Shown here one piece after another: positions 56,763-56,878 of a DNA stretch of 64,000 nucleotides. The notes under the pieces were generated by a model. That model did not search any database, was not told the origin of the DNA, and worked only from the letters and a program-made list of their open reading frames with translations. The translations under genes and the position numbers were made by a program. Numbering within the stretch: the first letter of the stretch is position 1; every line of letters begins with the position of its first letter. Origin of the DNA: Escherichia coli (GTDB lineage Bacteria; Pseudomonadota; Gammaproteobacteria; Enterobacterales; Enterobacteriaceae); the NCBI RefSeq assembly GCF_022846255.1, contig NZ_AP025682.1. One strand, written 5' to 3'.

Positions 56763-56878
56763 TGGGACCCCCTTTTGATTTCTTGTTTGACACTTGCAGT
56801 TGCCAGACCGCAAGGTGTTTTAACAAATCAAAAGGGGTTTTAATAACTGGCTCAAAGCTGAAAGCTTTCCGGAACCCC

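Follow-up and report, generated by a model that had tools for sequence, protein, structure and literature searches.

The stretch of Escherichia coli DNA considered here (64,000 nucleotides of contig NZ_AP025682.1, hereafter the window) carries an IS200-type transposase gene, tnpA, whose leader contains an inverted repeat and lies next to an IS4 copy. The locus raises the question of whether this repeat is a preserved repressor of transposase translation, and whether the IS4 insertion has any part in that repression. The element was identified as IS200C, since it is 99.9% identical to copies annotated as such in RefSeq, and IS200C was found in 3097 of the 5426 complete E. coli genomes. The tnpA product matched the Pfam profile Y1_Tnp (PF01797, 128.7 bits) over profile positions 2–121 of 121, and contains the motifs HUH at 61–63 (H61/H63) and Y125. 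The features of the locus are collected in Table 1.

Table 1. Features of the IS200C::IS4 locus in the window (nt, IS200 numbering).
Feature	Position	Strand	Description
tnpA	56304..56762	-	IS200C Y1 (HUH) transposase, 152 aa, intact; Pfam, motifs and 99.9% identity
SD-sequestering stem-loop, tnpA 5'UTR	56769..56837	-	69 nt, IS200 nt ~70–138; folds, RF01405 consensus, covariation
Lower stem, 5' arm (anti-SD), CCCCUUUUGAUUU	56825..56837	-	contains the equivalents of the 'LS' mutations, nt -69..-75
Lower stem, 3' arm, AAAUCAAAAGGGG	56769..56781	-	sequence and fold
Shine-Dalgarno (SD) AAGGGGG	56768..56774	-	6/7 bases paired; 5 nt before the ATG
Apical helix UUGCGGU/ACUGCAA, 6-nt loop CUGGCA	56794..56813	-	sequence conserved across phyla
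Small conserved hairpin, AAAGCUUUCAGCUUU	56854..56868	-	at the tnpA transcript start; TSS about nt 40 = 56867
Predicted art200 (STnc490) antisense sRNA gene	56753..56843	+	about 90 nt; coordinates transferred from Salmonella IS200
Left-end terminator hairpin, 3' half (nt 18–34), CAGCTAGGCTGGGGGTT	56873..56889	-	begins with one 11-nt copy of the IS4 target duplication
IS4	56890..58315	-	1426 bp, within the left end of IS200C; transposase ORF 58249..56903 reads in the same direction as tnpA
Displaced outer left end (nt ~1–28), TGTGCACAGAAAACCCCCAGCTAGGCTG	58316..58343	-	directly after the flgL terminator T-run; compared with uninterrupted copy L130
IS200C right end, hairpin AACCTCCGGCTATGCCGGAGG then ATATTTATT	56195..56227	-	terminator-like for tnpA; end set by comparison of three copies

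The inverted repeat was observed on the minus strand as CCCCTTTTGATTTGTT at 56837..56822 and AACAAGAAATCAAAAGGGGG at 56787..56768, and a repeat search gave arms of 16 nt that are 94% complementary and 37 nt apart. Its 3' arm includes the SD sequence, separated from the tnpA ATG (56762..56760) by the five-nucleotide spacer TCCCA, which exactly matches the original prediction. The 96-nt leader 56845..56750 folded at −37.2 kcal/mol into the 13-bp lower stem, followed by a G/G mismatch, two pairs, internal loops, and the 7-bp apical helix. Of the five SD guanines, four are paired in the lower stem, and the fifth (56768) is unpaired in the minimum-energy fold. Dinucleotide shuffles of the same leader gave −20.2 ± 3.1 kcal/mol, and none of the 200 was as stable (z = −5.42). 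The same hairpin was kept when the leader was folded in 116-nt and 181-nt contexts, so that the folding check proposed with the original prediction returned a stable SD-containing hairpin at all three lengths. Unpairing of the SD costs 11.9 kcal/mol, a value reached by none of 40 shuffles (4.7 ± 2.4 kcal/mol). The pairing probability of the SD was also tried as a test statistic, and did not discriminate the window (0.80) from the shuffles (0.74), since a purine run pairs in any C/U-rich shuffle; it was hence replaced by the opening energy. What exceeds chance is helix stability; that the purine run is paired at all does not.

The Rfam model RF01405 (STnc490, IS200 left end) matched 56895..56772 of the minus strand over its full length (model positions 1–124 of 124) with 120.5 bits and E = 6.4e-25 against a gathering score of 56, and its consensus structure contains the SD hairpin. 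Helix 1 of the match has non-canonical pairs owing to the IS4 insertion, as its 5' arm, the left-end terminator, is replaced by the end of IS4. The window copy hence agrees with the STnc490/art200 family of IS200 and IS1541 in the full-length match and in the art200 promoter/TSS region (nt 155–195), which is identical to the Salmonella copy L001, and differs in the IS4-derived arm and in the strand of the match, which is that of tnpA. The match extends from the terminator hairpin to the 5'UTR hairpin (56772–56895) on this tnpA-sense strand, whereas STnc490/art200 is described in the literature as antisense to tnpA, covering about nt 64–153 (PMC4513863); the strand and extent of RF01405 may not correspond to those of the actual sRNA.

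The IS200 numbering follows PMC4513863, with the window position equal to 56907 minus the IS200 nt number for nt ≥ 18. On this scale the stem occupies nt 70–138, the SD nt 133–139, and the ATG nt 145, in agreement with the left end mapped by Ellis et al. 2015 (PMC4513863), which comprises a terminator at nt 12–34, a tnpA start at about nt 40, a stem-loop at nt 69–138, and an art200 start at nt 153/154. The same paper gives the SD as AAGGGGGU, describes the tnpA promoter as undefined, and is the source through which the stem-loop is also credited to Beuzon, Marques & Casadesus 1999. The segment 56769..56837 is hence the known IS200 5'UTR hairpin (nt 69–138), which has been described and dissected by experiment before, and does not amount to a new regulatory element. 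That an RBS-occluding stem-loop of the IS200 type is preserved here, as had been proposed from the sequence, was borne out by the intact Y1 tnpA, the RF01405 match, the position at nt 69–138, and lower-stem bases identical to those of Salmonella.

In Salmonella IS200 the SD is sequestered, and the wild-type leader gives only a weak 30S toeprint; mutations of the lower stem (−69 to −75) led to a 20-fold stronger toeprint and to a 50-fold increase in tnpA-lacZ (PMC4513863). Both art200 and Hfq, the latter with a site at −33 to −17, repress Salmonella tnpA independently, and the apical helix/loop is the first contact site with art200 (PMC4513863). The equivalent of the mutated bases, CCCCTTT at 56837..56831, is identical in the Salmonella copy L001, and this identity extends to the entire lower stem, the SD, and the spacer. 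Because of these identities the same repression mechanism was assigned to the window copy with high confidence, as a reading by homology. The two leaders also share the position in the element, the start codon, the apical helix/loop, and the Rfam family (the SD reads AAGGGGG(U) in both), and differ in the internal loop, ACACC/GUGU in the window versus ACAUC/AAGUU in L001, where one change is compensatory (C-G versus U-A). The window copy further differs from Salmonella IS200 as an E. coli-type IS200C isoform with its left end interrupted by IS4.

According to this mechanism, the C/U-rich 5' arm would pair with the SD-bearing 3' arm in the tnpA mRNA, the 30S subunit would seldom reach the SD, and the transposase would be made at a very low level. 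The opposite strand of the repeat is predicted to encode the antisense sRNA art200 as an independent layer of repression, and Hfq binding just upstream of the SD would add another. Each is a known repressor that is encoded by these bases or acts on them, and neither was part of the original prediction, whose stem-loop stands as one of the tnpA repressors. The window copy joins an intact repressor module and an intact tnpA to a left-end hairpin split by IS4. The best overall explanation is that the 69-nt repeat 56837..56769 is very probably a cis-acting translational repressor of IS200 tnpA; this rests here on its sequence, beyond-chance stability, family membership, and covariation, and the repression of 30S binding and of a reporter is taken from a near-identical element. 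The consequences of the IS4 insertion and the expression of art200 in this host are what we infer from these data.

Along the minus strand, the locus reads flgL with its terminator, about 28 nt of the IS200 left end, IS4, and the remaining IS200 (56889..~56195) with tnpA. IS4 was identified by its length of 1426 bp, its terminal inverted repeats, a DDE transposase with the Pfam domains Nterm_IS4 and DDE_Tnp_1, a target duplication within the range of 11–13 bp, and the RefSeq annotation of identical junctions. The duplication is 11 bp long (CAGCTAGGCTG on the minus strand, 58326..58316 and 56889..56879), with direct repeats CAGCCTAGCTG at 56879–56889 and 58316–58326 that are spaced 1437 = 1426 + 11 apart. 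Removal of IS4 and one repeat restored AACCCCCAGCTAGGCTGGGGGTT, the palindrome of nt 12–34, as it stands in the uninterrupted copy L130. IS4 hence splits the left-end hairpin between nt 28 and 29 and leaves the right-end hairpin intact; of the two intact end hairpins by which a complete mobile IS200 was judged, the left one is lacking.

Ellis et al. describe the palindrome of nt 12–34 as a bidirectional terminator, which keeps transcription that starts outside the element away from tnpA (PMC4513863). It resembles the right-end hairpin AACCTCCGGCTATGCCGGAGG, and comparison with the IS200/IS605 family makes it the likely transposase recognition hairpin as well. As IS4 splits this terminator/recognition hairpin, the copy is probably immobile. 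A terminator scan of the minus strand from 56903 to 56762 gave no terminator; with the shield lost and the IS4 transposase gene co-oriented, the tnpA leader may therefore receive read-through from IS4. Translation is still expected to be blocked despite IS4, because the SD hairpin is intact, and we infer that the insertion affects transcription and mobility rather than translation. The window copy is most likely both translationally repressed and immobile. The original prediction had tied a silent copy to the stem-loop together with the upstream IS4: the insertion and the predicted silence hold, and the link between IS4 and translation does not, as IS4 lies inside the left-end terminator.

IS4 was observed at the same 11-bp site (CAGCTAGGCTG, the palindrome apex) and in the same orientation within IS200C at at least three unrelated chromosomal loci: beside flgL in the window, between wzzB and hisIE in FDAARGOS_1252, and beside an Rpn gene and IS66 in Eco889 and WP4-W18. 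The shared site lies at 56879–56889/58316–58326 in the window, at 1775/3212 in L131, and at 2270–2290/3710–3722 in L129. Among the 5426 E. coli genomes, the IS200C::IS4 junction was present in 219, and an IS4 end was found in 2600 genomes at 5275 places. The flgL-side junction of the window (58280–58440) was found in none of the 5426 complete E. coli genomes, with the best match to the flgL end being 99% identical. These data suggest either that IS4 has targeted the IS200 palindrome repeatedly or that gene conversion has spread the insertion among IS200 copies. IS4 has a target preference of AAA-N20-TTT, and a literature search yielded no usable report on its target specificity.

Of the IS200-group copies that were read beyond their left end, most begin right after the T-run of a rho-independent terminator (L001, L002, L004, L130, and L131), and the left flank of the window copy (58343–58376) consists of the flgL terminator GCCCGC...GCGGGCATTTTT followed by GTGCACAG. 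The left flanks of L003 and L129 contain a hairpin with no clean T-run. On the other side, between rne and the right end of IS200C, the plus strand at 55346–56175 encodes a TacA-like antitoxin (PF08681, 92 bits), whose gene overlaps with that of a GNAT acetyltransferase toxin-like protein, and the end of IS200C (~56195) lies about 20 nt past the stop codon of the latter.

Homologous leaders were retrieved with a degenerate pattern for the HTRWNCKYH peptide of the transposase; as this pattern lies in coding sequence, the leaders themselves were not selected for. This gave 120 loci from Enterobacterales, Vibrio, Pasteurellaceae, Desulfovibrionia, Fusobacteria, Spirochaetes, Lentisphaeria, Mollicutes, and many Firmicutes, which together with plasmid copies (Salmonella, Yersinia, and Xenorhabdus) made 75 unique leaders. 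Nearly all of the 75 fold into a single long hairpin in which the 5' arm complements the SD of the leader itself, with anti-SD/SD pairs such as ACCUCCCUUGAUAU/AUUAAGGGAGGU, CUGUCCUCCUUUGGUAUA/UAUAACCAAAGGAGGACAG, and AUCCUCCUAUAAUG/CACAUAGGAGGAU. The median energy for opening the SD was 11.6 kcal/mol versus 3.4 kcal/mol in shuffles, and 56 of the 75 leaders exceeded all 40 of their shuffles. Leaders without a strong SD hairpin were mostly visibly damaged copies, as exemplified by L107 with a truncated left end and by L066, which has lost the 5' arm and apex of the stem-loop and has a free SD. The opening energy of this L066 leader (Mangrovibacter yixingensis, upstream of 892–917) falls to 2.0 kcal/mol, so it may be a naturally de-repressed copy.

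Compensatory change was examined without the deleted copy L004 and the plasmid matches L005–L008 (~75% identity), which were excluded because tnpA-less relics are uninformative on selection. L004 (701–867) is a natural variant in which nt ~12–70 of the left end are deleted. The relics are tnpA-less IS200 left ends on IncF plasmids with about 75–78% identity and a partly decayed SD hairpin; 127 nt adjoin iss/Rz1 in E. coli (L005–L007, 701–827), and 95 nt lie among other neighbour genes on a Klebsiella plasmid (L008, 701–795).

A MAFFT alignment of 27 diverse leaders (A1), which was not fitted to structure, was submitted to RNAalifold, and the consensus comprised the lower stem and the apical helix. 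Compensatory double changes were observed in 13 of the 16 consensus pairs, also within the SD. Paired cells made up 93.7% versus 83.3% in shuffles (0/500), and the covariation score was 0.369 versus 0.201 (0/500), counts that are not probabilities because the aligned leaders are related by descent. When the partners were slid by 1–3 columns, the fraction of paired cells was 39–56%. One pair within the SD switches between U-A (GGAGG/CCUCC, 15 sequences) and C-G (GGGGG/CCCC, 11 sequences), which indicates that the 5' arm follows the SD. An excess of G-U over A-C in A1 was rejected as evidence, as 22 of the 38 G-U cells derive from one conserved G-U pair.

The apical helix/loop UGCGGUCUGGCAACUGCA (56794–56813; A1 columns 59–79) is near-invariant from Enterobacterales to Clostridia and Desulfovibrio, whereas the lower stem is variable. 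The loop contains a CUGG (YUNR-like) motif, and its conservation may reflect an antisense kissing contact or another conserved partner. The RF01405 model recognised the copies of Vibrio, Brenneria, a Desulfovibrio, and one of the Clostridia, and missed ten more distant loci with the same architecture; the extent of the hairpin across phyla may be under-recorded.

The plus strand of the repeat supplies the main alternative, in which the repeat is kept mainly as the body and intrinsic terminator of art200 and the mRNA hairpin is a by-product, a reading that is possible but that we consider doubtful. Transfer of the Salmonella coordinates places the art200 start (nt 153/154) at 56753/56754 and its 3' end at about nt 64, and a generic sigma-70 scan gave no promoter site for either tnpA or art200. 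Past the inverted repeat the plus strand reads GGGGTTTTAATAA / GGGGTTTT, which gives a hairpin with TTTT after it. This terminator geometry recurs among the homologues: an A-run stands just 5' of the sense hairpin in 55 of 74 leaders, which is a U-run after the hairpin on the antisense strand. A further point in favour comes from the Ser-Leu codons that lie opposite the candidate antisense −10 box, where TTA encodes Leu in 47 of 51 cases versus 29% elsewhere in the same genes, and AGY encodes Ser in all 51 versus 61% elsewhere. The AGY-TTA constraint falls just before HTRWNCKYH (56735–56745 on the minus strand of the window; L009–L128), and its reverse complement, TAAACT/TAAGCT, is a candidate −10 box across phyla. 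The A-run and the codon bias together suggest that the antisense RNA is widespread. A test for the strand of selection, in which the two strands were compared in fold energy and in G-U count, showed no asymmetry, with the sense fold better in 41 leaders and the antisense fold in 31 (p = 0.49); as the hairpin is equally stable on both strands, covariation cannot separate selection for the mRNA fold from that for the art200 fold or terminator. The tracking of the SD sequence by the 5' arm is what SD occlusion predicts, however, and genetic data also speak against a by-product. Lower-stem mutations de-repress Salmonella tnpA 50-fold, and art200 can still repress the mutant, so that the two act independently. 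Reports on Salmonella IS200 state that silencing of the antisense promoter leaves repression by the stem intact, and that stem mutations which preserve complementarity to the antisense RNA still de-repress. The two roles are compatible, which makes art200 an addition more than an alternative; by the published genetics, both the mRNA hairpin and art200 are objects of selection.

Selection might also act on other products of the same sequence. Processing of the Salmonella IS200 tnpA 5'UTR is reported to yield regulatory RNAs that act on the expression of host genes (PMC5435999), so the leader could be kept as the source of a stable trans-acting sRNA on host genes and not for transposase control. 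Besides this precedent, sequence conservation of the apical helix/loop far exceeds the needs of SD occlusion; however, the architecture is conserved in phyla without shared host targets, which fits an element-intrinsic function, and the reported trans role adds to cis repression without replacing it, so this explanation appears unlikely. The repeat might instead act as DNA, by forming a single-strand hairpin for the Y1 transposase or for transposition, given that transposases of the IS200/IS605 family act on single-stranded hairpins (PMC5027513). The end-to-end resemblance is, however, confined to nt 12–34 (AACCCCCAGCTAGGCTGGGGGTT) and the right-end AACCTCCGGCTATGCCGGAGG, nt 69–138 have no right-end counterpart, and one arm of the latter repeat is always the tnpA SD; a role as DNA is accordingly very improbable. 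A functionless palindrome that arose by chance, for which only the general frequency of short inverted repeats speaks, was refuted by the fold stability (z = −5.4, 0/200 shuffles), the Rfam match, and the compensatory changes across phyla, and retains a negligible probability.

The control logic of IS200 resembles that of IS10 RNA-IN/RNA-OUT, in which the transposase mRNA has an occluded ribosome-binding site and is under antisense control. In both systems initiation is limited by mRNA structure, and a cis-encoded antisense RNA and Hfq take part. The sequences and the transposase families (DDE versus Y1 HUH) are unrelated, and IS200, unlike IS10, derives both the mRNA hairpin and the antisense RNA from one inverted repeat.

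Taken jointly, the cis-repressor, the antisense signals, and the IS4 insertions allow a tentative reading to which we give a little less than an even chance, namely that the whole left-end control cassette is ancestral to the IS200 group across phyla instead of being peculiar to enterobacteria, and that IS4 targets the apex of the left-end palindrome. The cassette may consist of the anti-SD/SD hairpin, the conserved apical loop GCGGUCUGGCAACUGC, an antisense promoter within the synonymous positions of Ser-Leu/Cys-Lys codons, and an antisense hairpin with a U-run terminator. If this is true, targeting by IS4 would inactivate IS200 copies and tie their leaders to transcription from IS4, and repeated insertion at one 11-bp site of IS200 would be a case of one insertion sequence targeting another. 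For annotation, the locus should be entered as an intact tnpA of IS200C that has the usual translational repressor and is nested with IS4. For the family, the occlusion of the SD by an anti-SD arm is kept with compensatory changes from Firmicutes to Proteobacteria, probably together with the antisense RNA; the architecture surveyed extends beyond the reach of the current Rfam model, and its conservation helps to explain the wide dormancy of IS200-group elements.
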